Shown piece by piece: positions 1 through 28,772 of a stretch of DNA of 64,000 nt. The position numbers were made by a program, and so were the translations under genes. This stretch comes from an uncultured Candidatus Poseidoniales archaeon (GTDB taxonomy: Archaea > Thermoplasmatota > Poseidoniia > Poseidoniales > Poseidoniaceae), in assembly GCA_902563095.1 (NCBI GenBank), contig CACEWA010000004.1:114-64113 (forward strand). Direction: 5' to 3'. Position 1 is the stretch's first letter, and each line of letters begins with the position of its first letter. The notes under the pieces are model-generated. The model saw only the letters and a program-made list of their open reading frames with translations, did no database searches and had not been told where the DNA came from.

Positions 1-137
1 GAGGCCAATTCCTCGAGACTAACTACATCACCTTTTTTTAGGTCGTTAGATTTGACCCATTCTTTTGGCAGTGATACGATTATTGTAGAACCACCGGTGA
101 CCTGGAGCTTACGGAACTCGCTATCTTGGCCTACCAT
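1..137 (-). CDS. AbrB/SpoVT-domain PhoU-family phosphate uptake regulator, N-terminal 45 codons only (gene runs off the left edge)
   Basis: Absent from the ORF track because it is truncated. The reverse complement of 1-137 starts at ATG (137-135) and reads [45 protein letters not shown]. The RKxQxTGGSTxxVSLPKxW motif is typical of archaeal AbrB-PhoU regulators. GGGGGAGA lies 3-4 nt upstream of the ATG, and the gene is divergent from pstS. Confidence 0.6.
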
Positions 138-294: not shown

Positions 295-1395
295 ATGAGT
301 TTGAAAAGAAACGGAATGGCGTGGACACTTGTCCTTACAATGATGGTTGCTGGATTAGCAGGCTGCCTTGGAGGAGACAGTGACACAGACGAAGAAGTAA
401 AGACGATTAACATAGCTGGAAGCAGTACAGTATACCCTGTGGCAAGTGCTTGGGGACAAGCTTACCAAACTGTGAACACTGATGTGACAGTTACAGTTGC
501 TGGTGGAGGATCAGGCGCAGGTGCATCAAAGGTATGCAGCACTGATACTGACTCTGTACACATCGGCGACATGAGTCGCGATTGGAAGGATTCCGAAGCG
601 ACCAGAAACGCTGATGGATATACATTTGATTGCGTAAACTCTGACGTTACTGTCACACAATTAGTGGTAGCAGTAGACGGATTATCCGTTGTTGTGAAGA
701 AAGGTGGAGCGGCAGACCAGTGTCTGAACTCCATGGGTGGCATTTCAATGGCTCAGCTAAGGTGGGTCTTCTCTGACTGGACAGAGTCCGAATTAGAAGC
801 AGATGGAGTAGACTTGAACTCTACAACTCCAAACAACGACGGCGACGACCTAAGAGAGTGGGGGGACCTAGATGCGTCATGCGATGACACAGAGATTACA
901 CTATGGGGCGCAGACTCCGATTCTGGAACCTACGAATATTTTGGAGAGCAGGTATTTTGTAAGAACTGCTTCTCTGGAAAGGAAGGATATGAATACGAAG
1001 GGTTTGACACAGAGAGAGGTTACCAAAACTCTGCTGACGACAACCAGATTGTCAAAGGAATCGATGGGGATGAGAATGCAATCGGTTACTTCGGCTATGC
1101 TTACTATGAAGAGAATGCAAACAAGTTGAACGTTGTAGCCATTGCTAACAACGACACCCACGGCGTCCAAGACGCCGGAGGTGCTGTAGTTCCCAGTGAG
1201 CAGACTGTAGCAGACAACAGTTACGCACCTCTCTCAAGAGCGATTTACATGAATGTAAACAATGCTAACTGGGATTTAGTTCGTGGCTTCTTTGAGTATG
1301 GTTATTCCGAAGAAGGAATGGAGCATGTATCCGATGTAGGATACGTTGCCCTTCCGGATGACATGATCGAAGATATGCTAGCAAGACTAGGTTGA
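295..1395 (+). CDS. pstS: phosphate-binding lipoprotein, PstS family (ABC substrate-binding protein)
   Basis: Signal peptide with lipobox (MMVAGLAGC). PstS/PBP signature INIAGSSTVYPVASAW...VAGGGSGAGASKV...IGDMSRDWKDSE. AGGAGAG Shine-Dalgarno motif upstream of the ATG. Confidence 0.85.
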   Translation: MSLKRNGMAWTLVLTMMVAGLAGCLGGDSDTDEEVKTINIAGSSTVYPVASAWGQAYQTVNTDVTVTVAGGGSGAGASKVCSTDTDSVHIGDMSRDWKDSEATRNADGYTFDCVNSDVTVTQLVVAVDGLSVVVKKGGAADQCLNSMGGISMAQLRWVFSDWTESELEADGVDLNSTTPNNDGDDLREWGDLDASCDDTEITLWGADSDSGTYEYFGEQVFCKNCFSGKEGYEYEGFDTERGYQNSADDNQIVKGIDGDENAIGYFGYAYYEENANKLNVVAIANNDTHGVQDAGGAVVPSEQTVADNSYAPLSRAIYMNVNNANWDLVRGFFEYGYSEEGMEHVSDVGYVALPDDMIEDMLARLG

Positions 1396-1426: not shown

Positions 1427-1466
1427 GGCCCACAGGGGAAGTCCTCTCCCCTGTGGGCCTTTTTTT
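1427..1466 (+). terminator. intrinsic-terminator-like hairpin plus T7 run after pstS
   Basis: Perfect 13-bp stem, GGCCCACAGGGGA (1427-1439) pairing with TCCCCTGTGGGCC (1447-1459), with a 7-nt loop. It is followed directly by TTTTTTT (1460-1466). A smaller ACCGG/CCGGT hairpin lies at 1406-1420. Confidence 0.6.
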
Positions 1467-1528
1467 ATTTCATTCTGAGATAAGAAACCATCAAGGACAA
1501 TAGAGTATGCCCCATACATGGTGGAAGT

Positions 1529-4500
1529 ATGAAGGGCCGAGCTTTTCTGTTAGTTTTCCTTATGGCAATGGCACCTTATCTGTCAACAATTGATGTGGTT
1601 GAAGCGACTTCCGGCAGAGCAATGGCATGTGCAGGGAATGTTTGCTTGAATGAAGCTCTACCTAATCCCAATGGCTATGACGACGCTGCATGGCCAGGTG
1701 GAGAATGGATGGAAATATACAATTCAGGAACCACTGCAGTTGATGTATTGAACTGGGAATTAGTCAACAAGGCAAACAAAGTACTGACATTTGATTCCTC
1801 CTCTATTGTTGGTTTTGAGGCTGGAAACTCCAGCACTTGGACAATACAGCCGGGTGATTACATGGTTATTGCAAGAAATGCAAACCAAAATTTCTACCTC
1901 ACAAATACCGCTGATTGGATCACTATGAATGATGCTTCAGGAAATACTGTTGACCAAGCATCTTGGAACTCTACAGCATCTGGAGTCAGCCTAGAGGAAG
2001 ACCCAACCAATGCAATGAATGATTGGATTTCGACTAACAGTCCAACACCCGGCTCAGTGAACAGTGCATCTACAGGACCTGTTCCTTCAGACTTGAGAAT
2101 AAGCGAAGTCATGGCTAACCCTTGGCCATCTGCCGACAATGCTTCTTGGCCAGGTGGAGAATGGCTTGAGATTTGGAACTCAGGTCAAAGTGACATCGAC
2201 CTAACTGGTTGGACAGTGGTTGATAATGCTGGAAACATCATTCCTTTCAATGAAAGTCACCTAATCGGTTCGTCCTCAATCATAGGGCCCGATGAATATC
2301 GTGTAGTTGCAGTAAACTCCTCTACTTCTTGGGGAGTATTCAACAACGGAGGAGAAACACTACGTCTGCAATGGCCGAATGGAACAATGGCAGAATCAAT
2401 ATCTTGGAGTGACACTGTGTCTGGCTTCTCTTTAGTCGAACAGGTCGACTTATCTTGGTCGCATTCAGCATATCCTACTCCCGGTTCTGCTAACCCTGCA
2501 TACTGGGAAGTAATCGTTAATGGAACTTCGATGATCAAGATAACCGAGGTCTTGGTCAATTCAACAACAGACGGAGCGCCATTACCTGATGGGGAATGGC
2601 TAGAATTGCACAATACTGCCAATAGCGATTACGACCTAAACGGTTGGAAATTAATGGATGGGATGGGCAATGTCACACACATTGATGCTCTAACCCTAGA
2701 GAACAACATGACTCAACCAGGCACAATGATTGCTGCAGATGGAAGAAGATTGGTTCAATTTTTCATGGGAACTGAACTTTGGGACAACTACAACCATGTC
2801 ATGCTGATTGACCAAGCAGGTGCAATCGTTCACAAATCGTGGTGGAATAGTGACCCTGGACTAAACGTTTCACTGATTGAATCACCAGATCCAATGGGGG
2901 CATGGGTTCCAGCAAGTTGGCCTACACCTGGCCAACCTGAGCCAAGTACTGTCTCAATGGTCGGTGAAATCGCATTCAACGAAATCCTGCCAGATGCTGT
3001 AGGAAATGATACCTCTTCTTGGCCCAACGGGGAATGGATTGAACTGATCAACATCGGAAACCAGACTATTGACATTGCAAACTGGCACTTCAAATCCGGT
3101 TCTAGAAACTTCAACATCAATCCTCACCAAATGCCACTCAAGAGTGACACAATGGTTAATCCTGGTGAGATTGTCTTAGTAGCTATCAATGGAAGTCAAG
3201 GATTCTATCTAAGGAATACAAACCCTGACACCATCGAATTGAGAGACTCTACAAACCAAATCATCTCTACAATCACCTACAACTCCAGCACCGAAGGCGA
3301 ATCAAACTGGTTCTGGAACGGTGATTGGTCACAATCTCCATGGCCTACACCAGGTACTGCAAACCCACAAACTTCACCTTACACTGGTGATGATTCCATT
3401 GAAATCACCGAGATACTTGCACACTGTTCAGATGGAAGCATCACCCCAGCTGATGATTGGATAGAAGTAATGAACAATGGCACACAGATGATTGATTTGT
3501 CTGCTTGGAGAATGATATCTAGCGATGGTGATTTGATGCATCTGCGCTCAGATAGGGTGTGGAATTCTACCAGCATGATTATCGCTCCTGGAGAAAGATT
3601 TGTTTTCACAACTCCGAACTGGTTTATCAGCGGCTTGGGAGATTCCATCTCCCTCCAAGACCCTGATGGTTTGGAAGTTGATTTCGTTGGCTGGAGCATT
3701 ACTACTGACTGTAAAACCATGAATGGTGATGGAGAAGTTCTACCGTGGCCAACACCGGGAGAAGAAGAGCCTGATACTTCGGATTTTGCTGGACCTGAAG
3801 ACTTGATTTTCAGCCGTTTCATGTTTGAAGAAAAGAGCCAAGACACTAATGATGAATTCTTTGAAATTAGCAACACTGGAGACCTAATGGCTGTCCTAAA
3901 TGGTTGGTCTATTAGGAAGATAACCACTGGTGGAACCACCTTCAATGGGACATTTACTGCAGGTGAAATTAATGCGGGTTCATCGGTAATTATCAGCCCA
4001 GATGCGAATTCCGTAAAGGCGATGGGCGCCACAATGATACTGGATGCAGATGAAGTGATGAATTTCCCTGTATGGATGCCTAACAGTGGAGCAACAATCC
4101 AATTGGTTGCACCTAATGGAGTCATTGCTGATACATTCGTTTATGGAAATGGACCTACTTCTGAAGAAGGTTGGTCCGGCCCTTCGATTGGCGAACCAGT
4201 AACGACTGTCGACCGTATTCTGTACCTGAGAGGTGACGGATGCGGAAGCATGCCGGATACCGATTCATCTAGCGATTGGGAGATGCGTTGGTCGGTTGCA
4301 GGTGCAAGTCATTTCTGTGGCATCAATACATTCACAGATGACACTAGCGTAACCCCACTCATTGGTCCTTCAGCAGGTCTTGATGATGTAGTTACAATGA
4401 TGAATAACGCAAACGATTCTATTCATTTGCACGTATACCAATTACACGACACTTACCTTGCAATGTCACTCATTGAAGCAGCAGCAAGAGGTGTAGACAT

Positions 4501-6226
4501 CACCGTAGTTATCCATGAGCCAGAAAGCTGGTGGGGTGACTACAATGTTGGACAGAGTCTGGGAATAGCATGGGAGTTAGAGAATGTAGGAATTGAAGTA
4601 ATGCAATTTTCATCTTCTTCATCTTCTCCTTACCAGTATGTACACTCCAAGGTTGCTGTAGTCGATTCATCTCAAGTTTGGATTAGTTCAGGAAACTGGA
4701 AGTCATCATCTCTGCCAAGTGATGGAGTTGGTAATCGTGACTGGGGAGTCATTGTAGACAGTGAAGACCTTGCTTCGATTGTTCTTGAGAGAATGGCATT
4801 TGATGAAGACCCAAGTGAACTACATGTTGAAGATTCAACATATACACAACCTGAATCTGGTTCCTATTCACCTCCGGTTTCATACCCTGTGGGACAAACA
4901 ACCGCAGCGATTTCCGGACCAATTAGCGGTGAATTATTGACATGCCCTGATGATTGTATGCAGGGATTATCAGATTTCATCGACTCAGCAGATTCCGAAA
5001 TTCTACTATCCTTGCAGTACTTTGAGATGGATTGGTATTGGGGATGGGGAGAGAACCCACTGCTCGACTCACTCGAAGACGCTGCCGCTAGAGGTGTAGC
5101 AATCCGTCTTGTAATCAATCAACACTACGTAAATGAAAACCCAGGAATTAGAGAAGCTGTGAATTCATTCAATGAATGGGAAGGAGATGTTGAAGCCATC
5201 TTAATGAGCGAAAATGAAACTGTCACTAAGTTGCACAACAAGGGTGTAATTATCGACGGAGAGAGTGTTCTAATCTCTAGCATTAATTGGGGAGACAACT
5301 CGATTCTTCGTAACAGAGAGATGGGGTTGATTATCCATTCACAGCAGGTCACTCAGCCTTACATGGATTCATTCTGGGAAGATTGGAATCGCCTAGATCC
5401 TACCACTGATACCGATATCGATGGGATTCCAGACTTCTGGGAAGTTGCTAACAATTTGTCTAGAACAAATCAAGATTCAACTCTAGACCCTGATGGAGAT
5501 GGTCTTACCAACTTAGGAGAATATTCCTATGGTTCTGATCCAAATTCCAATGATACTGACGGAGATTGTATCACCGATGGTGATGAAATCCTGTGGGCGG
5601 CAACCATGGCAAATGTGACTGCAGGAAGCGCTTTGACTCTAACAGATGCTGATGGAGATGGTGTAGACGATTATACAATCATAGGATGCATCCCTGAGCT
5701 AGATGAACAGCCAAATCAGGACAATGATTCAGATAACAACGGTGATAATAACACCGTAGTCGATGATCTTGATTCTGATAACGATGGAATCCTCAATGAA
5801 TTTGATGATTGCCCAGATACAGAAGCAGGCGCTGCCACAGATACCCAAGGATGTTCAAATGAGCAAAACAAGAATCAGGTCTACAAAGACACTGAAGAAG
5901 ATGGACTCTCAAGTGGAATGACATTCATGTGGGTTCTAATTATCGGCGGAATATTCGTTCTATTCGGGGCTGGTTCCCTCCTTCTGAAGCAAAAGAAGGA
6001 GGAAGATTCTGAAGACGAAATATCTCATATCCCTGAATTAGCTGAAACAAAATCTTGGGATATGCCAGTGCTAGATGGCACATCAGCAGAAGAATCTGAT
6101 GGGCCAGATCTAAGTCGATTCCCCGGTTGGAGTTCGGAACAGGTGCAAAAGTACCTTGATTCCGGATGGAGTGAAGACCAACTTGCAGAGTGGTATCAGC
6201 AGCAAGTAGACAATAATAACGCGTAA
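1529..6226 (+). CDS. surface-anchored multi-LTD (lamin tail domain) protein with dual-HKD phospholipase D-family module
   Basis: 1565-aa ORF with N-terminal signal peptide MKGRAFLLVFLMAMAPYL. Six ~145-aa repeats carry the LTD-type signature (ISEVMANP...WPGGEWLEIWNSG..DIDLTGW) and each ends in WPTPG. Two HKD motifs: HSKVAVVDSSQVWISSGNW (His codon at 4643) and HNKGVIIDGESVLISSINWG (His codon at 5234). Acidic DxDxDG repeats, a C-terminal TM helix (about 5918-5990) and a ~80-aa tail follow. There are more than 20 N-x-S/T sequons in the ectodomain. Confidence 0.8.
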   Translation: MKGRAFLLVFLMAMAPYLSTIDVVEATSGRAMACAGNVCLNEALPNPNGYDDAAWPGGEWMEIYNSGTTAVDVLNWELVNKANKVLTFDSSSIVGFEAGNSSTWTIQPGDYMVIARNANQNFYLTNTADWITMNDASGNTVDQASWNSTASGVSLEEDPTNAMNDWISTNSPTPGSVNSASTGPVPSDLRISEVMANPWPSADNASWPGGEWLEIWNSGQSDIDLTGWTVVDNAGNIIPFNESHLIGSSSIIGPDEYRVVAVNSSTSWGVFNNGGETLRLQWPNGTMAESISWSDTVSGFSLVEQVDLSWSHSAYPTPGSANPAYWEVIVNGTSMIKITEVLVNSTTDGAPLPDGEWLELHNTANSDYDLNGWKLMDGMGNVTHIDALTLENNMTQPGTMIAADGRRLVQFFMGTELWDNYNHVMLIDQAGAIVHKSWWNSDPGLNVSLIESPDPMGAWVPASWPTPGQPEPSTVSMVGEIAFNEILPDAVGNDTSSWPNGEWIELINIGNQTIDIANWHFKSGSRNFNINPHQMPLKSDTMVNPGEIVLVAINGSQGFYLRNTNPDTIELRDSTNQIISTITYNSSTEGESNWFWNGDWSQSPWPTPGTANPQTSPYTGDDSIEITEILAHCSDGSITPADDWIEVMNNGTQMIDLSAWRMISSDGDLMHLRSDRVWNSTSMIIAPGERFVFTTPNWFISGLGDSISLQDPDGLEVDFVGWSITTDCKTMNGDGEVLPWPTPGEEEPDTSDFAGPEDLIFSRFMFEEKSQDTNDEFFEISNTGDLMAVLNGWSIRKITTGGTTFNGTFTAGEINAGSSVIISPDANSVKAMGATMILDADEVMNFPVWMPNSGATIQLVAPNGVIADTFVYGNGPTSEEGWSGPSIGEPVTTVDRILYLRGDGCGSMPDTDSSSDWEMRWSVAGASHFCGINTFTDDTSVTPLIGPSAGLDDVVTMMNNANDSIHLHVYQLHDTYLAMSLIEAAARGVDITVVIHEPESWWGDYNVGQSLGIAWELENVGIEVMQFSSSSSSPYQYVHSKVAVVDSSQVWISSGNWKSSSLPSDGVGNRDWGVIVDSEDLASIVLERMAFDEDPSELHVEDSTYTQPESGSYSPPVSYPVGQTTAAISGPISGELLTCPDDCMQGLSDFIDSADSEILLSLQYFEMDWYWGWGENPLLDSLEDAAARGVAIRLVINQHYVNENPGIREAVNSFNEWEGDVEAILMSENETVTKLHNKGVIIDGESVLISSINWGDNSILRNREMGLIIHSQQVTQPYMDSFWEDWNRLDPTTDTDIDGIPDFWEVANNLSRTNQDSTLDPDGDGLTNLGEYSYGSDPNSNDTDGDCITDGDEILWAATMANVTAGSALTLTDADGDGVDDYTIIGCIPELDEQPNQDNDSDNNGDNNTVVDDLDSDNDGILNEFDDCPDTEAGAATDTQGCSNEQNKNQVYKDTEEDGLSSGMTFMWVLIIGGIFVLFGAGSLLLKQKKEEDSEDEISHIPELAETKSWDMPVLDGTSAEESDGPDLSRFPGWSSEQVQKYLDSGWSEDQLAEWYQQQVDNNNA
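1640..4170 (+). repeat. six tandem in-frame lamin-tail-domain (LTD) coding repeats
   Basis: Repeat cores: NEALPNPNGYDDAAWPGGEWMEIYNSG, SEVMANPWPSADNASWPGGEWLEIWNSG, TEVLVNSTTDGAPLPDGEWLELHNTA, NEILPDAVGNDTSSWPNGEWIELINIG, TEILAHCSDGSITPADDWIEVMNNG, and the degenerate SRFMFEEKSQDTNDEFFEISNTG. The period is roughly 145 aa. The repeats have diverged at DNA level. Confidence 0.7.
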
Positions 6227-6264
6227 GATTGACAAGGGAGTGCTATAATCGCTACCTGAGTCAC

Positions 6265-7011
6265 ATGGTGTACCGTAGTAGCAACCCCGCGCTGAACCCT
6301 CAATACTTCCAAGGTGGAATGGCAGCAGAAAGAATGACCTTAGATGGTACAATAAACAAGACACTAACACTGTTGGGTCTAGTATCAATCGCTGCAATGT
6401 TATCTTACTCGATTGTATCACAAAACTCAGGTTTAGGCTTCTTGATGATTATCGGAGCAGGCATAGGCGGTTTTGTTCTAGCATTAGCAATCATGTTCAT
6501 TCGACCTAATAATCCACAGATTTTGATGAGCATGTATGCTTTATTGGAAGGTCTGTTCATAGGTGGATTTTCTTATATGGTCGAGAATTATTACCTAGGT
6601 GGATCTGAAGGAGTTGTTCTCCAAGCATTAGTAGGAACCGTTGCAGTATTCTTGACTATGCTGGCTGTCTACAAATTCGGAATCATCAAGCCTACAGAGA
6701 AATTTGTCTTGGTAGTCACCTCAATGGTTGGTGCAATCATGATCATCTATGTATTCAATTTCGTACTAATGTTGTTTGGAACAGGAGTGCCATTCATGCA
6801 CAGTAGTGGACCAATCGGAATTGGTATCAGCGTAGTTTTCATCACAGTAGCAGCATTAATGCTGATTGTTGACTTCGGAATGATTGAGAATGGCGTCAAG
6901 TTTGGTGCCCCGAAAAATATGGAATGGTATGGAGCATTTGGATTGGTACTCACTCTAGTTTGGCTATACATTGAGATGCTGAAGTTAATCGCAAAGTTAC
7001 GTGATAACTGA
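6265..7011 (+). CDS. Bax inhibitor-1/YccA family membrane protein
   Basis: MVYRSSNPALNP N-terminus and about 7 TM helices, with a charged C-terminal LKLIAKLRDN typical of BI-1/YccA. The ORF track starts at TTG 6229. I prefer ATG 6265. Confidence 0.75.
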   Translation: MVYRSSNPALNPQYFQGGMAAERMTLDGTINKTLTLLGLVSIAAMLSYSIVSQNSGLGFLMIIGAGIGGFVLALAIMFIRPNNPQILMSMYALLEGLFIGGFSYMVENYYLGGSEGVVLQALVGTVAVFLTMLAVYKFGIIKPTEKFVLVVTSMVGAIMIIYVFNFVLMLFGTGVPFMHSSGPIGIGISVVFITVAALMLIVDFGMIENGVKFGAPKNMEWYGAFGLVLTLVWLYIEMLKLIAKLRDN

Positions 7012-7030
7012 TTACAAGAAAGTGATTAAA

Positions 7031-7963
7031 ATGGCTAGAACACTTGCTGTTTGTAATCTCGCTGACTGGCGAGCAGGAGGCGAAAGGAAAGACGCGTTCG
7101 TCCAAGAAATGGGTGCTGCGCTTCAGGACATTGGTTTCTTCGCACTGACAGGGCATGGAATTGATGTTGAAGCCATAAAAAAATCATATTCTGTTGCAGA
7201 GGGTTTCTTTCAATTGCCACAAGAAGAAAAAGGCAGATATGAACAAGCTGAATTGTTCCGCCAAAGAGGTTACACTCCCTATGGAGTTGAACATGCAAAG
7301 GATAACCCTGCACCAGATTTGAAAGAGTTCTGGCAAACAGGACGTACCATTGATGACCCTGATTTTCACAAGAATATCTGGCCTGAACGGCCAGCAGACT
7401 TTGAGAGTTCAATCGATGGTTTGTATATCGCCATGGAATCTATGAGTTCTGAATTACTTGCTGCTGCTTCACTATACTTAGCAAAGCCAGAAACATGGCT
7501 ACCAAATATGTCCCACAATGGCAATACCATTCTACGAGTTATCCACTACCCTGCCCTTGGTGAAAACGCTCCAGAAGGAGCAGTTCGAAGTGCACAACAT
7601 GAGGACATCAACCTGATCACACTTCTTGTAGGCGCAACTGCAGATGGGCTACAAGTGATGGACCATGATGGAACTTGGATAGAGGTTGAAGGAAATCATG
7701 ACCACATCATTGTCGACAGTGGAGATATGCTACAGAACTTGACAAATGGTCTATTCAAATCGACAACTCACCGTGTAGTCAATCCACCTGATGCAACATC
7801 TGATAGGTATTCGATGCCAATGTTCGTCCACCCTAGAGACGATGTTGATTTGACTCCACTACCAGAGTTCGTAGAAATGACTGGAGGCGAGGCCTTGTAT
7901 GATTCAATAACCGCAGGAGATTACCTCCATCAGAGGTTGGTTGAAATTGGCTTAGCATCATGA
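7031..7963 (+). CDS. 2-oxoglutarate/Fe(II)-dependent oxygenase (isopenicillin N synthase-like family)
   Basis: HxD...H facial triad context (AQHEDINLITLL ... STTHRVVNP) and a DIOX_N-like N-terminus. GTGAT Shine-Dalgarno motif 4 nt before ATG 7031. The track start GTG 7001 overlaps the upstream gene. Confidence 0.8.
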   Translation: MARTLAVCNLADWRAGGERKDAFVQEMGAALQDIGFFALTGHGIDVEAIKKSYSVAEGFFQLPQEEKGRYEQAELFRQRGYTPYGVEHAKDNPAPDLKEFWQTGRTIDDPDFHKNIWPERPADFESSIDGLYIAMESMSSELLAAASLYLAKPETWLPNMSHNGNTILRVIHYPALGENAPEGAVRSAQHEDINLITLLVGATADGLQVMDHDGTWIEVEGNHDHIIVDSGDMLQNLTNGLFKSTTHRVVNPPDATSDRYSMPMFVHPRDDVDLTPLPEFVEMTGGEALYDSITAGDYLHQRLVEIGLAS

Positions 7964-7972
7964 GGTGTTCTC

Positions 7973-9229
7973 ATGAGACTCATGCCCGATATTTTGGCTG
8001 CAAAACGAGACAATCACGAACTTTTATCAAGTGATTTCCAATACATTTGCAACAATATTACGCGCATTCCTAGAGAGCAACTTGGAGCGTTTTTGATGGC
8101 CTGCCAAATCAACGGCTTGACATCCCAAGAAACAAGTGACCTAACTCGTGCAATGTTAGATGCTGGTGAAAAAATGCCGGTAGCACCAGGACGAGTTGAC
8201 AAACACTCTACAGGCGGAGTTGGCGATAAGATGAGCATCGTTTTAGCTCCAGCACTACGGGCTGCTGGGGCAATAGTACCCATGCTGGCAGGAAGAGGTT
8301 TGGCGCATACTGGAGGAACTATCGACAAACTCGAAGCGATTCCTGGATTCAATACTGGACTTTCAATGCAAGAAATGATGGACAATCCTTGTTTCATTTC
8401 TCGTCAAACAAATGATATCGCTCCTGCAGACCGAATTCTGTATTCGATTCGTGACATCACTGCTACTGTTCCTCAAATCGGATTGATTACTGCATCGATT
8501 ATCTCAAAGAAAGCAGCTGAGGGTCTTGAGAAATTGGTTCTTGATGTGAAGTGTGGAAATGCGGCATTCATGCAAACTAAAGAAGACGCTGTTGCACTTG
8601 CAAAATCTATGGTTGCTACCGGTAATAGTCTCGGAATGAAGGTTACTGCACAGGTTACTGAAATGGACAACCCAATAGGATCTATGTTTGGAAATAGCCA
8701 TGAAATCGTCGAATGTATTCAATGTCTAAAGGGAGATGGGCCTGAAGATACCATGGAACTAGTATATGCTCAGGCCGATTCTTTAGGATATGATATTCGT
8801 CCACACATCACCGATGGTTCAGCACTTGCTGAATTCCGAAGCATGTGTGTGCGCCAAGGGGTGTCAGAGAGCGATATCGATGACCTCATTGCAGACCCAT
8901 GGAGCAAACTAGAACGTTCGACACATTCAACTGAGGTACCTGCCACAAATTCGGGCTGGATTTCAGATATACACGCACTAACCATCGGTGAAATATTGTG
9001 CAAGTTAGGCGCAGGTAGAACTGGAGAAAATTCTGAAATTAATCATGGTGTTGGAGCGGAGCTTCTCGTTCGACGAGGAGATTTTATCGAAGAGGGAACC
9101 TCTTGGATTCGGTTTGATACCGATGCCAGAATGACCAATGAAACGATGCACCAAATCCAACAAGCCCTCACTCTTTCGGATTCTGAATTCCAGATTCCGA
9201 GCAGGGTTTTGCAAATCATCGAAGAATAA
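7973..9229 (+). CDS. thymidine/pyrimidine-nucleoside phosphorylase family protein
   Basis: VDKHSTGGVGDKMSIVLAP and LAHTGGTIDKLEAIPGF motifs. GAGGTG Shine-Dalgarno motif upstream. At 418 aa it lacks the extra N-terminal domain of archaeal AMP phosphorylases. Confidence 0.8.
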   Translation: MRLMPDILAAKRDNHELLSSDFQYICNNITRIPREQLGAFLMACQINGLTSQETSDLTRAMLDAGEKMPVAPGRVDKHSTGGVGDKMSIVLAPALRAAGAIVPMLAGRGLAHTGGTIDKLEAIPGFNTGLSMQEMMDNPCFISRQTNDIAPADRILYSIRDITATVPQIGLITASIISKKAAEGLEKLVLDVKCGNAAFMQTKEDAVALAKSMVATGNSLGMKVTAQVTEMDNPIGSMFGNSHEIVECIQCLKGDGPEDTMELVYAQADSLGYDIRPHITDGSALAEFRSMCVRQGVSESDIDDLIADPWSKLERSTHSTEVPATNSGWISDIHALTIGEILCKLGAGRTGENSEINHGVGAELLVRRGDFIEEGTSWIRFDTDARMTNETMHQIQQALTLSDSEFQIPSRVLQIIEE

Positions 9230-9367: not shown

Positions 9368-10783
9368 TCACTTGAGTTTCATCTTTCCTAGGCAACTTCT
9401 CAAGCAAGATTCTAATTCGGCGTGAGTGAATTCATAACCGGACTCTAGAAGTCGATTTGGTCTTACATCTTGGCCCTCGAGAACTAATTTCTTACCCATT
9501 TGACCGAATAAGATTTTGATTACAAATCCAGGTAATGGTGCGAATGCAGGTCTTCTGAGAACCTTGCCCAGGGTTTTCGCAAATTGCTTTTGTGAAACTG
9601 TATTTGGTGCGGTTAGGTTGTATGCACCTGTGCTATCTTCCTTCATCATCAAGTGGTGAATTGCGTAGATCTCGTCATCTAAAGAAATCCAAGATTGCAT
9701 TTGCTTTCCTCCACCGACCGGGCCGCCCGCCCCCATTTTGGCAGGGAGCAATAATTTAGCAAGAGCGCCGCCAAAAGGAGACATCACAATTCCGGTTCTC
9801 AAGTGAATGACATTGATACCTGCTTCCTTTGCTGCATTCGATGAATTCTCCCAGTCTTTGCACAAGTCTGCCAGCATGTCATTTCCAGCACTCGAATTTT
9901 CATCAAGGACCTCAGTTCCTCTGTTTCCATAGAACCCTATCGCTGATGAGCAGAGAAGTTTCTTTGGAGGAGTTTCAAGTCCTGCTATAATTTTAGCAAG
10001 GTTTTGAGTAGGAATTATTCTACTGTCTCTAATCAATTTCAGACGCTTCTTGGACCAGCGCTTGTCACCGATTCCTGCACCTGCGAGATGAATAATACTG
10101 TCAAAGCTATTCATATCGCCTTCAAGAATCTCTCCGGACAAATCATTCCACCGAACCACCTTAGACGAATCTACATCGGTTGGTAACTTTGTAGTTGGAC
10201 GTAATAATCGGTGAACATCATGACCTGCTGCTTCTAGAAAAGCACACAATTGCAATCCAATCATTCCAGTAGAACCTGAAACTAGTATTCTCTGCCTAGG
10301 TAGTTCTGCAGTCGCTTGTATCTGTTTCAAATCATTGGCAACCCTAACACTACGGAATTCGAACATCTGCTTCATCCTAGGAAGGACAGTTAATCCTGCA
10401 GACCATCCTGTGAATATGTGCAATGGAAGTTTGTATTCGACATTGTCTATAACTGAGGTAATTCCATTAGAATCTGATTCAAACTCATGGTGGTGATTCC
10501 AGGCTCCAAATGGACCCTTGATCATTCGGTCTGCAAAGGACTCTCCAGGTACAACACTGTGGTGCCTTGCAATCCATTTTTGTCGAAGCGGCCCCATTTT
10601 TACTTTGAATATGGTTTCATCGCCATCGACTAGTCTGCCTGCATTGATTGGTTGAATGCCTTCCCATTCAGGCATAATTCGCCTAAATGCTCCATCACTG
10701 TTGTACCAATCCCAAATCTGCTTTTTGCTAGCTTCAAATTTAGCTTCATGTACAAAGAGTGGCACTCTAATCCCTCCTTTCAT
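9368..10783 (-). CDS. SRPBCC (polyketide cyclase/START-like) domain fused to TIGR01777/YfcH-type NAD-dependent epimerase-like SDR
   Basis: N-terminal ~150 aa are SRPBCC-like (FVHEAKFEASKKQIWDWYNSDGAFRRIMPEW). A Rossmann motif ILVSGSTGMIGLQL follows, and the C-terminal DUF1731-like end is RLLESGYEFTHAELE. I chose the start at MKGGIRV (10783). The longer track ORF (to 10861) would run about 95 nt into the photolyase gene. Confidence 0.7.
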   Translation of the reverse strand: MKGGIRVPLFVHEAKFEASKKQIWDWYNSDGAFRRIMPEWEGIQPINAGRLVDGDETIFKVKMGPLRQKWIARHHSVVPGESFADRMIKGPFGAWNHHHEFESDSNGITSVIDNVEYKLPLHIFTGWSAGLTVLPRMKQMFEFRSVRVANDLKQIQATAELPRQRILVSGSTGMIGLQLCAFLEAAGHDVHRLLRPTTKLPTDVDSSKVVRWNDLSGEILEGDMNSFDSIIHLAGAGIGDKRWSKKRLKLIRDSRIIPTQNLAKIIAGLETPPKKLLCSSAIGFYGNRGTEVLDENSSAGNDMLADLCKDWENSSNAAKEAGINVIHLRTGIVMSPFGGALAKLLLPAKMGAGGPVGGGKQMQSWISLDDEIYAIHHLMMKEDSTGAYNLTAPNTVSQKQFAKTLGKVLRRPAFAPLPGFVIKILFGQMGKKLVLEGQDVRPNRLLESGYEFTHAELESCLRSCLGKMKLK

Positions 10784-12326
10784 ACGAAATGGGGCTAGAG
10801 TTGGCAGCCGCATTTGAGAACAAAGTTTGTTGTTTTGATGGAGAAACTGAGTATGTTTCAATATATTTCTTAGTACTGAATTTACGTTTCGTAGATGCGG
10901 TTGTCATGCATCTAATCTTACCGTAAACTGGTCGCTCAGTCCAACCTCTGTCGAATTTACCTAGAACCCAGCCTATTCCTGTGTATGTATTGGGGTCTCT
11001 ACCGTCCAAAGCCCATTTATCGTTCAATGCAACCATGTATTCCATTGCAATTTCAGGAGTCGGAGTCCACTCGAGTATCTTCTTACCCCACAGCATACGG
11101 AGATAATTGTGAATCATTCCTTCTGAGCGAAGTTGCCTTTGAGCCGCATTCCACAACTCGTCGTGAGTTTGAGCATTCTCGAATTCATCAAATGAATAAA
11201 TGTAAGGACGCGGGTCGTTTTCATGTTCTTTCAGTGTCTTTTGTGCCCACTCTGGAATAGATGCAAATTCGTGATGATTTTGAACTCTCACACAGTGGAT
11301 GAAACCTAAATCTCTCCAGACAATTATCTGGTCTAAGAAAGACTCCACATCATTAGGTAAGCCCCACCATCCTGACCTCCTTCCATTATCAGGAGGAACA
11401 ATATCGGAAATATCCCAATCAAATTTTGAGAAAATTTCGGATAGAATTTGATGAGGGCTAATGTGACCAAAGTGAAGATAAGGAGATAGGCCACTTGAAC
11501 CATTGAGTTCAGGTTGATTTCGATTCTCGGAGTAGTCGCTGAGCCTTTCTTCCAAGAACTCATTCCATCGCAATGATGCAGCCATAGAACCACCCTTAGT
11601 TTGCTGTACTGGAGGCACAGAATGGTCGATTGCTAAAATGGAAAGGGCATTAAGACCAATATCTTCGATTTCACAAATTCTCCAAATGAATTCATACGGG
11701 GTAATCGGTGTATCGCTTTCTGAAAAAATACTCTCAACTTTTGTTTGACTGAATCTAGGTAGTCCGGCTGCGCCTGCAATCGGATCAGCTACGGGAAATT
11801 CTGACATGTGCTGAATAATTGTCTTGTGTAAATGTCTGCGCAATGAATATGCAGTGGTAAAATCGCGGTCTTGTCGCATTGCAATGAATCCATTTGAATC
11901 TACACAATGAACTTCACACTTACCAATCGATACCGCGATTTCTGAGATTCTGCGAGGCATGTAAACAGGGAAATCATCAATCACCATCACATCTGCAAAC
12001 TCCATCCATTTCTCGAGCAAACCCCTAGCCTCGTTAGGCTTGGTTTCCACATATGGGATGTAGGTAATAGGAGAATCCTCCAACGACCTTTTGTTATCCA
12101 TCATACCTTGAATCACAAAAGTGTGAGACCTGTCATTAGCCCACTCATGTGCTATGGCAAGTGCTTCTACCACTACCAATGGAAGATTGCGTTCATTAGC
12201 CAAATTAATAGCGTGCTGAAGACCATGATTCCATTTGGTTCTCCTGGCTGATATCATCCAGTACAGAACGCATTCACCAGAGCCTTGCCCTTGGTTGAAT
12301 ACTCTCAAACGGTTTTCTGGAATCAT
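10767..12326 (-). CDS. phr: class II CPD photolyase (deoxyribodipyrimidine photolyase)
   Basis: N-terminus NRLRVFNQGQGSGECVLYWM and C-terminal block HNYLRMLWGKKILEW...LNDKWALDGRDPNTYTGIGW...GKIRCMT...KRKF. This matches the class II photolyase pattern I recall from Methanosarcina-type enzymes. Confidence 0.8.
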   Translation of the reverse strand: MIPENRLRVFNQGQGSGECVLYWMISARRTKWNHGLQHAINLANERNLPLVVVEALAIAHEWANDRSHTFVIQGMMDNKRSLEDSPITYIPYVETKPNEARGLLEKWMEFADVMVIDDFPVYMPRRISEIAVSIGKCEVHCVDSNGFIAMRQDRDFTTAYSLRRHLHKTIIQHMSEFPVADPIAGAAGLPRFSQTKVESIFSESDTPITPYEFIWRICEIEDIGLNALSILAIDHSVPPVQQTKGGSMAASLRWNEFLEERLSDYSENRNQPELNGSSGLSPYLHFGHISPHQILSEIFSKFDWDISDIVPPDNGRRSGWWGLPNDVESFLDQIIVWRDLGFIHCVRVQNHHEFASIPEWAQKTLKEHENDPRPYIYSFDEFENAQTHDELWNAAQRQLRSEGMIHNYLRMLWGKKILEWTPTPEIAMEYMVALNDKWALDGRDPNTYTGIGWVLGKFDRGWTERPVYGKIRCMTTASTKRKFSTKKYIETYSVSPSKQQTLFSNAAANSSPISYERRD

Positions 12327-25238: not shown

Positions 25239-28200
25239 CTAATCTTGCCACTTTGTCCATGAACCATCGGCATTTTGGTACCAATTTTCACCGTTGTTAG
25301 CCCTGAACCAAACAGTTCCTTCTTCATCAGGATCAAGGTAATCACCACCGGGTAAATCTTCCCAAGATCCAACGGTGATTTCACCATCTGATTCTACTGT
25401 ATCTTCATCTTGAGGTTCATTGGATTCCTCTGAAGTTTCTTCAGATTCCGCCATTGGGGTAGAGTTCGGGGCACCAGGAGGTGGCAAATCTGTGAGAGAT
25501 TTGGGACCTGCACGCTTCTTCTTCGGCTGAGGTTTCTTTTTGAGCATGACAACAATAACTCCAACCAAAGCTAGAACCACGACACCTCCAATGATTCCGA
25601 CTAACGTCATAGTCCCCATACCTTCATCTTCACCAGATGCTGATGAATCATCACTGGTACTTTGGCCACCATCACTCGGCTCAGTTAGTAAGCACCCAGG
25701 ATAATTTACATCGTCATCGAAACGACCATCCGGTGCGACCAAAGGACACATGTCTGCTGAAGTTGCATCCTGTACAAAGATACCCGGCCATTCATCTTCT
25801 CGAGAATCGTTCCACTCAGGGTCGCCCCAGTTATCTCCAAATCCATCGTTATCTGTGTCAAACCATTGCGTTGGATCGATTGGGAACAAGTCAGGTCCAT
25901 AGCCAAGTGATTCCCACTTGTCGTATGTCCAGAATGCATCTGGGTCTGAATATCCATCCCCATCTATGTCAGGGCAACCGAATCGATCTATTGTCGAAGT
26001 GCCAGCATCATTAGTACAGAAGTCGACATTAACTCCTTCGAAATTATCACCGTATCCATCTCCATCCGCATCAGCCCATTGACTTGGTTCGTCAACGAAT
26101 GCATCAGCACCTTGAGCAACGCTCCAAGCTAGTTCTGGGTCAGAGTATCCATCGCCATCAGAATCAATACAACCAGTTCTATCAGCACTGGAGTTACCAA
26201 AGAAGAATGGGCAATCGTCGGGGTTGTTTCCTGCTGGGTTATCCCCATATCCATCAGCATCACCATCACTCCACTGTGTTTCATCTTGGAAGAATGCATC
26301 AGCAGCATCTGCCCAACCATCATCATCGAAATCAGGGCAACCCTTCATTCCGCCCTGTGTAGCAGTACCTTCTTGCAGAGGGCAGAAATCGATTATGTCT
26401 GAGAAACCATCATTATCGTCATCAGTATCTTCGCGCTGGTCGATACAACCATCACCATCGTTATCATTGGTTGAGTTCTTTCTCCAATTTGTGATTCCGT
26501 TCTTACACAAGTCAACTTCATTGATTACGCTATCATTGTCGTTATCGTTGTCTTCGTTATCATTTCGGCAGCCATCGCCATCACGGTCATTGGATTGTGA
26601 AGAATTCCAGCCTACCTCTCCTCTTGGACAATTATCGTATTCGTCGAAAATTCCATCGTTATCGTCGTCAGGATCTTCATTGGAGTTTTCATCTTCACAT
26701 CCATCGCTGTCTTTGTCTGTCTGTACCGCTGAAGTCCAATTCTTTGCTCCCTGTTGGCAGTCATCGATCAGGTCATCGATTCCATCACCATCGTCATCAC
26801 CATCACAAACGTCACCGATTCCATCGTCTTCGTAATCTTCTTGCAATGGATTTACAATAAACTGACAATTGTCATCCACATCTAATATTGAATCACCATC
26901 GTCGTCAGTATCTTCGTCGATATCTCTGCACCCGTCGCCATCGAGGTCACTGGAATTGTCGACAACCCAATCCAGGACTCCAGATGGACAGTTGTCATCA
27001 CCATCTAGAATACCGTCATTATCGTCATCATTGTCCTCTTCGATATCTTTGCAACCATCTTCATCATGGTCAAGTGAGGTGTTTGATTGATTCCAATTCA
27101 TAAATCCATATTGGCAATCATCAAGCACATCGTGGAGTCCGTCATTGTCATCGTCAGTATCACAAGCATCTCCTTTGATGTCAGAGTCAAAATTACTTTG
27201 ATTTGAATTCGCAGTGTTTAGGCAGTTGTCTGTATAATCAGTAATGCCGTCATCGTCCTTGTCGTGCTGGAAAACCCAAACGAATATATCTTGGTCTGTA
27301 GCACTTCTAGGAGTGTCTCCAAACCATACTGTCCCGCTGAAATCTCCTCCTGAGACTATCGTTCCATCATCCATTGCAAGTAAAGCACCTACAGTATCAT
27401 TACCGGCGCCACCAATACTCATCGACCATTGGTAGTCGGAGTTATTGTCAACCTGTGCCATGAATCCATCGAAGTAAACGGTTGAACTATTCTTCTGAAG
27501 AGTGTTAGAACCAAACTTCATCACATCTCCGTGCCAACCACCAAATTGGACTTGACCCTTAGGGTTTACAGAGAGTGATTGGATTCTGTCATCACCGTTT
27601 CCACCAGCATTGTAGTCCCATATCTGTGTACCATTAGCATCATAGCGCAACAATAGAACATCCCAACTACCCTGGCCTCCAACTGATGCACCACTCTGTT
27701 TTTTGTAATTCATTAGATAGTTGCCACCGACTACCACTCCACCATCAGGATGGATGACGACATTGTTGAAATAAACGCCACAATTAGTTCCGAAGCATTG
27801 TGTCCCTCCAGTATTTTGTCCCCAAATGAAACTTCCTGAATCTGAGTACTTAACCAAGAAACCAGCATAAGTCGATTGTGGGTTTGAAATGAATGTTCCA
27901 CCCCATTCTTCATTGCCAGTATTGTATCCAACGACGTAAGCTGAATTTGTACTTGTTTCTACTACTACTTGATAAGCAACTGAAACTCCATCACCATACG
28001 AGTTTTTAGCCCAATCCCACTGCTCTGCACTAATATTGTAGTATGCAAGGAAGAATCGCGGGTTCTCTGATCCAGCATCATCGTTCAATTGAGTTGCATC
28101 AAATTCTGTAAAGTTCTGGTAGTATCCTGTAACGTACAAGTTGTCATGATTGTCAGCAGCTAAATCCCATCCTACATCCACATCGAATCCGCCGAATTTC

Positions 28201-28772
28201 ATAGCCCAGTCCCATTGACCAGTGGCATTTACTCGTGCAATCCATCCATCGAAACCAGTTGTGTAAACTGTAGTATTTCCAAAGTTAACTTCTCCTTGGA
28301 AGTAACCCGTTCCATACACATTATCATTAGAATCGATTGTCACTCCTCTACATTCGTCATAGTAGAGTGCGGTACCTGCTGAAACTGCCCATTCCCAAAC
28401 ACCATCTTTTGATAACTTGGCGATTAGAATATCTCCTTCACCTTCGGTGTAAACCTGAATTGCTCCGAATTGAGATGCTTGGTAGATTGTACCGCAAATA
28501 ATGATGTCACCCTGTGAATCAAAAATCATTTCATATATCTCATCGTTACTTTGAGAACCGCCCGCTGTAGACCAATTTGTATTTGTTCCACGAGCCATAC
28601 CTGCTGCATTTAGGGCATTGATTTGTTCTAGTGTCATCTCGGAATCATCGATTAATCTAGAGTCTACGATTGACTCGCCATCTCTCTCCACAATTATTGG
28701 GGAATCAGAAATTGCTGGAACTATCGAAAGTAGAAAACAGGCAAGAATTCCGACGGCTAAGGTGCGGCGCAT
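25239..28772 (-). CDS. large surface-anchored protein: beta-propeller-type repeats + thrombospondin type-3-like acidic Ca-binding repeats + C-terminal TM anchor
   Basis: 1177-aa ORF with signal/anchor MRRTLAVGILACFLLSIVPAISD. The N-terminal half has repeated ...D..(D/G)N(V/L)Y(G/V)TGY... strands (SBBP-like). About 6 copies of a ~45-aa Cys-containing acidic repeat follow (DDDNDGxxDxxDxCPxG..W......DxDGDGCxD..ED), then DADGDGYGDN / DSDGDGYSDP repeats. The TM helix LVGIIGGVVVLALVGVIVVML and a ~100-aa acidic tail end in WFRANNGENWYQNADGSWTKWQD. Confidence 0.75.
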   Translation of the reverse strand: MRRTLAVGILACFLLSIVPAISDSPIIVERDGESIVDSRLIDDSEMTLEQINALNAAGMARGTNTNWSTAGGSQSNDEIYEMIFDSQGDIIICGTIYQASQFGAIQVYTEGEGDILIAKLSKDGVWEWAVSAGTALYYDECRGVTIDSNDNVYGTGYFQGEVNFGNTTVYTTGFDGWIARVNATGQWDWAMKFGGFDVDVGWDLAADNHDNLYVTGYYQNFTEFDATQLNDDAGSENPRFFLAYYNISAEQWDWAKNSYGDGVSVAYQVVVETSTNSAYVVGYNTGNEEWGGTFISNPQSTYAGFLVKYSDSGSFIWGQNTGGTQCFGTNCGVYFNNVVIHPDGGVVVGGNYLMNYKKQSGASVGGQGSWDVLLLRYDANGTQIWDYNAGGNGDDRIQSLSVNPKGQVQFGGWHGDVMKFGSNTLQKNSSTVYFDGFMAQVDNNSDYQWSMSIGGAGNDTVGALLAMDDGTIVSGGDFSGTVWFGDTPRSATDQDIFVWVFQHDKDDDGITDYTDNCLNTANSNQSNFDSDIKGDACDTDDDNDGLHDVLDDCQYGFMNWNQSNTSLDHDEDGCKDIEEDNDDDNDGILDGDDNCPSGVLDWVVDNSSDLDGDGCRDIDEDTDDDGDSILDVDDNCQFIVNPLQEDYEDDGIGDVCDGDDDGDGIDDLIDDCQQGAKNWTSAVQTDKDSDGCEDENSNEDPDDDNDGIFDEYDNCPRGEVGWNSSQSNDRDGDGCRNDNEDNDNDNDSVINEVDLCKNGITNWRKNSTNDNDGDGCIDQREDTDDDNDGFSDIIDFCPLQEGTATQGGMKGCPDFDDDGWADAADAFFQDETQWSDGDADGYGDNPAGNNPDDCPFFFGNSSADRTGCIDSDGDGYSDPELAWSVAQGADAFVDEPSQWADADGDGYGDNFEGVNVDFCTNDAGTSTIDRFGCPDIDGDGYSDPDAFWTYDKWESLGYGPDLFPIDPTQWFDTDNDGFGDNWGDPEWNDSREDEWPGIFVQDATSADMCPLVAPDGRFDDDVNYPGCLLTEPSDGGQSTSDDSSASGEDEGMGTMTLVGIIGGVVVLALVGVIVVMLKKKPQPKKKRAGPKSLTDLPPPGAPNSTPMAESEETSEESNEPQDEDTVESDGEITVGSWEDLPGGDYLDPDEEGTVWFRANNGENWYQNADGSWTKWQD
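25890..27260 (-). repeat. in-frame tandem acidic (Asp-rich, Cys-containing) calcium-binding-type repeats
   Basis: GAT/GAC-rich periodic coding sequence. This composition generates the long Ser/His-rich antisense ORFs seen in the track on the + strand (26224-26835, 26597-26860, 26869-27090). Confidence 0.7.

Follow-up and report, generated by a model that had tools for sequence, protein, structure and literature searches.

Marine Group II (MGII) archaea are uncultured, and their diet is still inferred from genomes. The stretch of DNA analysed here, called the window, comprises 64,000 nucleotides of contig CACEWA010000004.1 (positions 114 to 64,113) from an uncultured Candidatus Poseidoniales archaeon (assembly GCA_902563095.1). 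Near its start, an uninterrupted open reading frame (ORF) on the plus strand encodes a protein of 1565 amino acids, in which six lamin-tail domains (LTDs) precede a phospholipase D (PLD)-type catalytic module with two HKD motifs. This gene, termed LTD-PLD below, is a core gene of the order Poseidoniales, in both Poseidoniaceae (MGIIa) and Thalassarchaeaceae (MGIIb), and is known only through automatic annotation. Its parts are laid out as follows.

1529-6226 (+), LTD-PLD gene, 1565 amino acids (aa)
1529-1606 (+), signal-peptide-like N-terminus, aa 1-26, with a hydrophobic segment at aa 5-25 after MKGR
1634-4204 (+), six tandem lamin-tail domains, Pfam LTD (PF00932)
1634-2056 (+), LTD1, aa 36-176
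2090-2488 (+), LTD2, aa 188-320
2531-2935 (+), LTD3, aa 335-469
2963-3358 (+), LTD4, aa 479-610
3392-3763 (+), LTD5, aa 622-745
3794-4204 (+), LTD6, aa 756-892
4343-4813 (+), PLD N-lobe, aa 939-1095, PLDc_2; HKD motif 1 at aa 1039-1056 (nt 4643-4696)
4940-5398 (+), PLD C-lobe, aa 1138-1290, PLDc_2 at aa 1148-1286; HKD motif 2 at aa 1236-1253 (nt 5234-5287)
5399-5863 (+), Asp-rich repeats of calcium-binding type, aa 1291-1445, net charge -40, with two conserved Cys pairs
5903-5992 (+), single C-terminal transmembrane helix by hydropathy, aa 1459-1488, then KQKK
5993-6223 (+), conserved cytoplasmic tail, aa 1489-1565 (77 residues)

A sequence-only reading of the locus had described a signal peptide, six LTDs, a two-HKD module, Asp-rich repeats, a C-terminal transmembrane helix and a duplication in the tail, all of which were found by Pfam scanning and direct inspection. 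The Pfam LTD model matches six stretches (E 1.4e-75; 251 bits, with a gathering score of 34.3), which assigns them to this family, and the six units align with one another at 17-35% pairwise identity in a self-alignment. The repeat signature that had been ascribed to every unit, WPGGEW...WPTPG, is exact in some of them and degenerate in units 5 and 6. The cores read, in order, WPGGEW, WPGGEW, LPDGEW, WPNGEW, TPADDW and NDEFFE, and the units end in SPTPG, YPTPG, WPTPG (three times) and IGEPV. Four DxDxDG motifs occur between aa 1294 and 1420 of the Asp-rich region, which, when scanned alone, passes the calcium-binding model Binary_toxB marginally (26.5 bits; cutoff 25) and matches TSP3_bac under the cutoff (E 0.0067).

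The order of a signal sequence, a long hydrophilic region, a single transmembrane helix and basic residues implies a type-I membrane protein, with its N-terminal ~1430 residues predicted to be extracellular. The whole ectodomain has a very low isoelectric point (pI, ~4), as does the neighbouring PstS, and none of the twelve cysteines varies in an alignment down to 45% identity; both properties fit an extracellular protein, and the invariant cysteines fit one with disulfide bonds. The protein contains 25 N-x-S/T sequons. On the cytoplasmic side, the tail carries GWSSEQ at aa 1533 and GWSEDQ at aa 1546 within a motif shared across the family, FPGWxxEQVQxYLDxGW(S/T)E(E/D)QLAEWYQQQ, in which G1533, W1534, Y1542, L1543, G1546, W1547, Q1551, L1552 and Y1556 are invariant. 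No Pfam family matches the tail significantly, the best being GH-E (E 0.049) and Ish1, an HeH-like motif (E 0.2). That a surface enzyme keeps such a tail hints at a cytoplasmic partner or at signalling.

The catalytic module and its relatives

HKD motif 1 (HSKVAVVD, at aa 1039) lies in the stretch HSKVAVVDSSQVWISSGN and motif 2 (HNKGVIID, at aa 1236) in HNKGVIIDGESVLISSIN, and each HxKxxxxD motif continues into S-S-x-N-W. The Pfam model PLDc_2 matches two stretches (E 1.9e-37; 128.5 bits, with a gathering score of 27), and LTD and PLDc_2, the two families expected from the sequence-only reading, both lie far above their gathering scores. Across 14 sequences, down to 45% identity, H1039, K1041, D1046, N1056, H1236, K1238, D1243 and N1253 do not vary. 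Both full motifs, HxKx4Dx6[GS][ST]xN, persist in 68 of the 70 full-length orthologues that species-representative genomes provided, including MGIIb members at ~35% identity, and the C-terminal transmembrane helix is likewise kept in 68 of the 70. An AlphaFold2 model of aa 890-1300 has a two-lobed PLD fold, with a mean predicted local distance difference test score (pLDDT) of 87.4 and a predicted template-modelling score (pTM) of 0.90, and covers with confidence the region of about aa 950-1300 to which the catalytic module had been assigned. In Foldseek, the model matches two-HKD enzymes over ~420 columns, with a probability of 1.00 to PLD3/4, SpPLD and PLD1/2. Collectively, the two motifs, the PLDc_2 score and the predicted bilobal alpha/beta fold place the module in the PLD (HKD) superfamily, and the HKD pair is probably competent for phosphodiester cleavage. 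The proposal that LTD-PLD is extracellular, anchored at its C-terminus and equipped with several LTDs and a complete, conserved two-HKD module is borne out by domains, predicted topology, conservation and model alike.

Three narrower family assignments were rejected. For the cardiolipin synthases ClsA and ClsB, the scores are 28.3 bits with TIGR04265 (cutoff 290) and 18.5 bits with the ClsB model (cutoff 281), and the topology is opposite. NucT nuclease membership reaches at best 57.4 bits (equivalog cutoff 297), and two lobes are fused here in a protein of 1565 aa. The DISARM component DrmC scores 76.2 bits (cutoff 133), and the neighbouring genes are pstS, BaxI, an oxygenase and thymidine phosphorylase.

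A protein search returned 280 relatives at E <= 1e-5, and the best 120 of these 280 all contain LTD and PLDc_2, nearly all over the full length; where named, they are called 'lamin tail domain-containing protein [Candidatus Poseidoniaceae archaeon]' or 'cardiolipin synthase-like'. Scanning the species representatives of GTDB gave 80 loci from both Poseidoniales families, among which LTD-PLD identity falls to ~34% at near-constant length; the closest locus is that of Euryarchaeota archaeon UBA10 (95% identity). An exhaustive search restricted to the PLD module yielded 3529 representatives at E <= 1e-3, among them 145 at E <= 1e-30. Of 65 more distant relatives, scanning detected PLDc_2 in every one and LTD in 42; others have PKD, CARDB or Ig-type domains. 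These relatives bear generic names only and come from Thermoplasmata, Asgard lineages, Korarchaeota, Nanoarchaeota and Methanomicrobiales, and the same PLD clade also occurs as stand-alone proteins in unrelated archaea. Since 42 of the 65 combine LTD with PLDc_2, the fusion of LTD with a two-HKD module, found widely in archaeal metagenomes, is a widespread, mostly archaeal and uncharacterised architecture, of which the Poseidoniales form is the six-LTD, C-terminally anchored version with a conserved tail and operon partners. The architecture had been thought to lack any characterised archaeal example, and indeed no characterised enzyme with it was found in the literature, although LTD fusions to two-HKD modules as such are common. 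Literature searches found nothing combining lamin tail domain, phospholipase D and archaea, nor Marine Group II with lamin tail. The two main MGII comparative-genomics papers (PMC6336850, PMC6461757) mention neither lamin, cardiolipin nor nuclease, and an MGII metatranscriptome paper mentions none of lamin, phospholipase, nuclease, thrombospondin, thymidine and cardiolipin.

One distant relative is a 690-aa protein with LTD and PLDc_2 from another archaeal genome (locus L081, 6001-8073), the gene of which sits on one strand between a gene for an XPD-type helicase and those for a Y-family polymerase and both primase subunits. The remaining distant relatives that were examined lie among unrelated housekeeping genes.

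Several known systems share features with LTD-PLD. Among solved structures, the best matches to the family profile are Nuc of Salmonella plasmid pKM101 (1BYR) and NucT of Helicobacter pylori (6EHI), exported enzymes with minimal lobes of ~155-165 residues and metal-free phospho-histidine HKD chemistry. Unlike LTD-PLD, which has two lobes in one chain, they are single-HKD proteins (~160-180 aa) that dimerise, and they have neither LTDs nor a membrane anchor. The top structural matches are mammalian PLD3 and PLD4 (E ~3e-20, template-modelling (TM) score ~0.6-0.65), lysosomal 5'-exonucleases acting on single-stranded DNA and RNA, which are likewise single-chain two-HKD enzymes, membrane-anchored with a non-cytoplasmic catalytic domain. 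They are only 15-17% identical, eukaryotic and anchored at the N-terminus (type II), and they lack an LTD array and calcium-type repeats. Shewanella ExeM, Vibrio Xds and Haloferax volcanii Hvo_1477 resemble LTD-PLD in joining an LTD to a phosphodiester-cleaving domain and to cell-surface attachment, whereas their catalytic domain is of the EEP or staphylococcal-nuclease type rather than HKD, their LTD is single rather than sixfold, and their anchoring is via a lipobox or a C-terminal hydrophobic region. SpPLD of Serratia (7E0M), the best single-sequence PDB match (E 2e-6), and the Streptomyces PMF PLD (1F0I) are secreted two-HKD enzymes without LTDs or anchor; Streptomyces-type PLDs have extra gate and interfacial loops that are absent from LTD-PLD, and nuclease-like loops in SpPLD have been noted by its authors (PMC8004604). 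ClsA and ClsB also belong to the PLD superfamily and have two HKD motifs, but they combine N-terminal transmembrane helices with a cytoplasmic catalytic domain, whereas LTD-PLD, anchored at its C-terminus, is predicted to carry its catalytic domain outside the cell.

Gene block and phosphate island

The following features flank LTD-PLD in the window.

1-137 (-), N-terminal stub (~45 codons, at the window edge) of an AbrB/MazE-PhoU-type regulator gene, divergent from pstS
295-1395 (+), orphan gene for a pstS-family phosphate-binding protein, PBP_like_2 (E 1e-21)
1427-1469 (+), G+C-rich hairpin and T7 run; stem at 1427-1459 with 13 pairs (10 G-C), then TTTTTTTATT
6229-7011 (+), BaxI_1-family membrane protein, PF12811 (E 1.1e-70), 2 nt after LTD-PLD; a conserved MGIIa neighbour
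7001-7963 (+), 2-oxoglutarate (2OG)-Fe(II) oxygenase, DIOX_N and 2OG-FeII_Oxy, overlapping the end of the BaxI gene; a conserved neighbour
7973-9229 (+), thymidine phosphorylase, NF004490 (379 bits; cutoff 269); the conserved partner downstream across the order

Synteny was examined by tblastn of the window genes against the 80 loci, with all flanking ORFs clustered. The only block common to MGIIa and MGIIb consists of two genes, here c0 and c1, then LTD-PLD and then the phosphorylase gene, all on one strand (+) with gaps mostly below 100 nt. Its outer flanks differ between the two groups. Between LTD-PLD and the phosphorylase gene lie the BaxI_1 and 2OG-oxygenase genes in MGIIa and the oxygenase gene alone in some MGIIb, and in many MGIIb loci thymidine phosphorylase follows LTD-PLD directly (gaps of -59 to 89 nt, mostly 9-33). 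In ~55 loci the genes directly upstream of LTD-PLD are c0 and c1. The c1 product is a TctA/DUF112 membrane protein; that of c0, which lies directly upstream of the TctA-like gene in loci L010-L079, has ~585 aa with an N-terminal transmembrane helix and a TSP3-like C-terminal end (for example, L014 6631-8382). The phosphorylase is closest to human thymidine phosphorylase (E 6e-85, versus ~1e-26 for the archaeal AMP-phosphorylase type), and its conservation fits a deoxynucleoside theme. Among PDB matches to the oxygenase, thymine dioxygenase (5c3p) ranks 4th at E 1.4e-28, about equal to several unrelated oxygenases; the two enzymes may form a salvage pair from thymidine through thymine to oxidised thymine. 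The complete block c0, c1, LTD-PLD, BaxI, 2OG-oxygenase and thymidine phosphorylase was also seen on contigs assigned to Salinimicrobium sp. (L041) and a Rhodobiaceae bacterium (L079), which are probably archaeal contigs mis-binned into bacterial metagenome-assembled genomes.

The phosphate genes upstream of LTD-PLD have a far narrower distribution than this block. The minus-strand translation of the stub at the window edge matches the start of a cluster of genes in related loci (c10) in which Pfam detects MazE_antitoxin and PhoU, and because of this match the stub is recognisable as a PhoU-type regulator. The regulator that had been placed beside pstS is upheld to this extent, the window containing only 45 codons of its gene, on the minus strand at the edge. 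The pstS product scores under the cutoff of TIGR02136 (E 2.9e-52; 177.7 bits, cutoff 206.6), and no pstCAB genes follow pstS in the window or stand beside it in the loci that carry these phosphate genes. The strong terminator noted earlier between pstS and LTD-PLD is present as the hairpin with its T-run, which is likely, from its sequence, to end the pstS transcript; the same hairpin was found in L006.

Phosphate genes, namely those for the AbrB-PhoU regulator, a PHO4/PiT-PhoU_div transporter and pstS, adjoin LTD-PLD only in seven genomes (the window, L002, L004, L006, L009, L038 and L039), all from the sub-clade of the window at 59-85% identity. The transporter gene, with the regulator gene before it, is directly upstream in L002, L004, L009, L038 and L039; pstS is directly adjacent in the window and L006, and of the 80 loci just L004, L006 and L009 have it in the 10 kb upstream. 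The island, seen for example at L004 3492-9896, in L009 and upstream of LTD-PLD in L002, L038 and L039, has three arrangements, always at the junction of the TctA-like gene and LTD-PLD: regulator with PiT; regulator, pstS, a second regulator copy and PiT; and regulator with pstS, as in the window. The same genes are absent from the ~55 other species-representative loci of both families, including L005, L007 and L051 at 67-74% identity. Since c0 and c1 are immediately upstream in these ~55 loci, the phosphate genes are an island inserted at the c1/LTD-PLD junction in a single lineage. The sequence-only reading had drawn on the placement after pstS and a PhoU-type regulator and had named lack of conserved linkage in related genomes as evidence against itself; as a general feature the linkage is not supported, and it is indeed lacking in most of the family, close relatives included. 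The pstS adjacency is thus a lineage-specific addition and does not define LTD-PLD function. Independently of this comparison, a phosphate substrate-binding subunit has been listed as a subclade-specific trait (Tully 2019, PMC6336850).

Further downstream in the window, an ORF at 25239-28772 (-) encodes 1177 aa with a pI of 4.05, its only Pfam match being thrombospondin type-3 repeats (E 2.5e-9); its product is probably another large surface protein. A DUF1731/epimerase-family ORF at 9368-10861 (-) and a photolyase-like ORF at 10767-12326 (-) overlap by 95 nt and are syntenic in several related loci, and the downstream ORF of the pair probably starts later than its first TTG.

Substrate and role of the surface enzyme

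A surface enzyme hydrolysing extracellular phosphodiesters is a reasonable general description of LTD-PLD. Prokaryotic LTDs accompany metallo-beta-lactamase, synaptojanin/EEP and calcineurin-like phosphoesterases, according to the summary of Mans et al. (2004) given in PMC6085458, and the HKD catalytic partner is a variant of this known LTD-phosphoesterase theme. Removal of the LTD from ExeM lowers its nuclease activity in vitro (PMC6085458). Hvo_1477 of Haloferax, a lipoprotein that joins an LTD to a thermonuclease domain, is implicated in growth on extracellular DNA as a phosphorus source (PMC3929857), and a large LTD-nuclease is encoded in DNA-degradation loci of Izemoplasma (PMC8289736). 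Four functional readings, which overlap, were weighed. The favoured one, held at a little below even confidence, is that LTD-PLD is a cell-surface HKD ecto-nuclease with extracellular nucleic acid as its substrate. The distal LTD array would extend outward and hold polymeric or particle-bound substrate, while the HKD pair in the membrane-proximal module would cleave phosphodiesters, presumably via the usual covalent phospho-histidine intermediate and without a metal cofactor, to release products near the cell. These products might feed nucleoside catabolism, represented by the thymidine phosphorylase of the same co-directional block, and in the lineage of the window the upstream phosphate island (PhoU-type regulator with pstS or PiT) might take up released phosphate.

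Several comparisons favour nucleic acid. Against PDB sequences, the family profile matches Nuc (1byr, 2.7e-11), NucT (1.5e-10) and Zucchini/MitoPLD (1.4e-8) best, then SpPLD, and no classical PLD at E <= 1e-3. The best NCBIfam matches, all under their cutoffs, are DrmC (2.7e-21) and NucT (1.3e-15), versus 8e-7 for cardiolipin synthase. In Foldseek, target-normalised TM scores are 0.60-0.67 for the top matches, namely the 5'-exonucleases PLD3/PLD4 and the compact SpPLD, versus 0.43-0.51 for PLD1/2 and the Streptomyces PLD, which carry extra lipid-interface elements. The pairing of LTDs with characterised surface nucleases, the order-wide co-directional block with thymidine phosphorylase and the phosphate island beside LTD-PLD in seven genomes lean the same way.

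Several points weigh against this reading. The profile ranking is biased, as the PDB holds few structures of cardiolipin-synthase type. Foldseek E-values for nuclease-type and lipid-type PLDs lie within about two to three orders of magnitude of each other, those for lipid PLDs being weaker by just 100-fold, and since both types match at a probability of 1.00 with such close E-values, the fold leaves the substrate unsettled. The catalytic lobes have net charges of -17 and -20 with 13 K/R, which is unfavourable for polyanionic DNA; such acidity is general among secreted proteins encoded by this genome, and magnesium or calcium of seawater could bridge DNA to acidic lobes. Synteny with thymidine phosphorylase could reflect co-transcription without a shared pathway, and the gene contexts of distant relatives of the PLD module have no consistent theme. 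The c0 product has sub-threshold and insignificant matches to the DUF4131 N-terminal domain of ComEC and to the OB fold (E ~0.02), and one homologue has a precomputed PF01336 match; as its structure model is unusable (pLDDT 38, from an alignment of close homologues only, >=75% identical), these hints remain insignificant. An extension of the nuclease reading to the whole block, as a dedicated module with which the most abundant planktonic archaea of the ocean would harvest extracellular DNA, made up of c0 (membrane-anchored and possibly with an OB fold), the TctA-like permease, LTD-PLD, the 2OG-oxygenase (possibly thymine-dioxygenase-like) and thymidine phosphorylase, is rather doubtful.

The main rival is an ecto-phospholipase D, which would cut head groups from bacterial or eukaryotic phospholipids in vesicles, detritus or prey membranes and would supply phosphatidic acid or head groups to a heterotroph with fatty-acid degradation genes; we regard this as fairly unlikely. 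SpPLD (7e0m), PLD1/2 and the Streptomyces PLD all match the model strongly in structure, the label 'cardiolipin synthase-like/phospholipase D-like' is given in source annotations, and PMC6461757 and PMC9723583 infer lipid and fatty-acid degradation for Poseidoniales. The catalytic module is near the membrane, and its acidic surface is compatible with zwitterionic lipids. However, in sequence profiles HKD nucleases are nearer than lipid PLDs or Cls, and the low target-normalised TM scores reflect compact lobes without the extra loops of Streptomyces and eukaryotic PLDs. Moreover, the conserved block contains no lipase, esterase or beta-oxidation genes, its conserved partner being thymidine phosphorylase.

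Still less probable are two readings that look to phosphate supply and to the envelope of the cell itself. LTD-PLD might be a Pho-regulon scavenger, induced with pstS under phosphate limitation and mainly freeing phosphate from dissolved organic phosphodiesters, as the AbrB-PhoU regulator with pstS or PiT immediately upstream in the seven loci would suggest; the island has stayed at the LTD-PLD junction, since three different internal arrangements are found there. This linkage is missing in ~55 loci of both families, the hairpin with its T-run separates pstS from LTD-PLD, and the pho promoter region between the regulator gene and pstS shares with the LTD-PLD upstream region no motif of at least 9 nt (one shared 8-mer was found, with ~0.6 expected). 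A diesterase alone frees no orthophosphate, and the required monoesterase or nucleotidase is not in the block. Equally improbable is that LTD-PLD is an envelope or adhesion protein, in which the PLD module acts on the cell's own envelope by head-group exchange or by attachment and turnover of phosphodiester-linked surface polymers, or in which the whole serves as a structural canopy or adhesin. A core gene of near-constant length across the order, an array of Ig-like domains, calcium-type repeats, the 25 sequons, the C-terminal anchor and the conserved cytoplasmic tail would all suit such a role, as would the position of the catalytic module as the membrane-proximal globular part and the membrane-protein nature of the conserved neighbours c0 and c1. 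On the other hand, the strictness with which both HKD motifs are kept points to catalysis and not to a scaffold, and the occurrence of the same PLD clade with PKD, CARDB and Ig sets and stand-alone in unrelated archaea suggests a portable hydrolase.

In the sea, dissolved DNA makes up a large store of organic phosphorus and nitrogen. If LTD-PLD is a nuclease, MGII archaea would be tied to the turnover of dissolved DNA, and if it is a phospholipase, to that of membrane lipids. Were the whole block a DNA-harvesting module, LTD-PLD would become the first ecto-nuclease of HKD type to be described in Archaea, its LTD array serving as a polymer-capturing arm, and in some lineages phosphate transporters would have joined this locus. 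With either activity, nuclease or phospholipase, a function would be gained for a widespread, uncharacterised and mainly archaeal clade of two-HKD enzymes fused to LTD or PKD. LTD-PLD is unsurprising in its parts, yet a giant surface enzyme that is encoded in essentially every Poseidoniales genome with its catalytic residues intact is a conserved and testable clue to the surface activity of MGII archaea, and a concrete, expressible one to how they feed.

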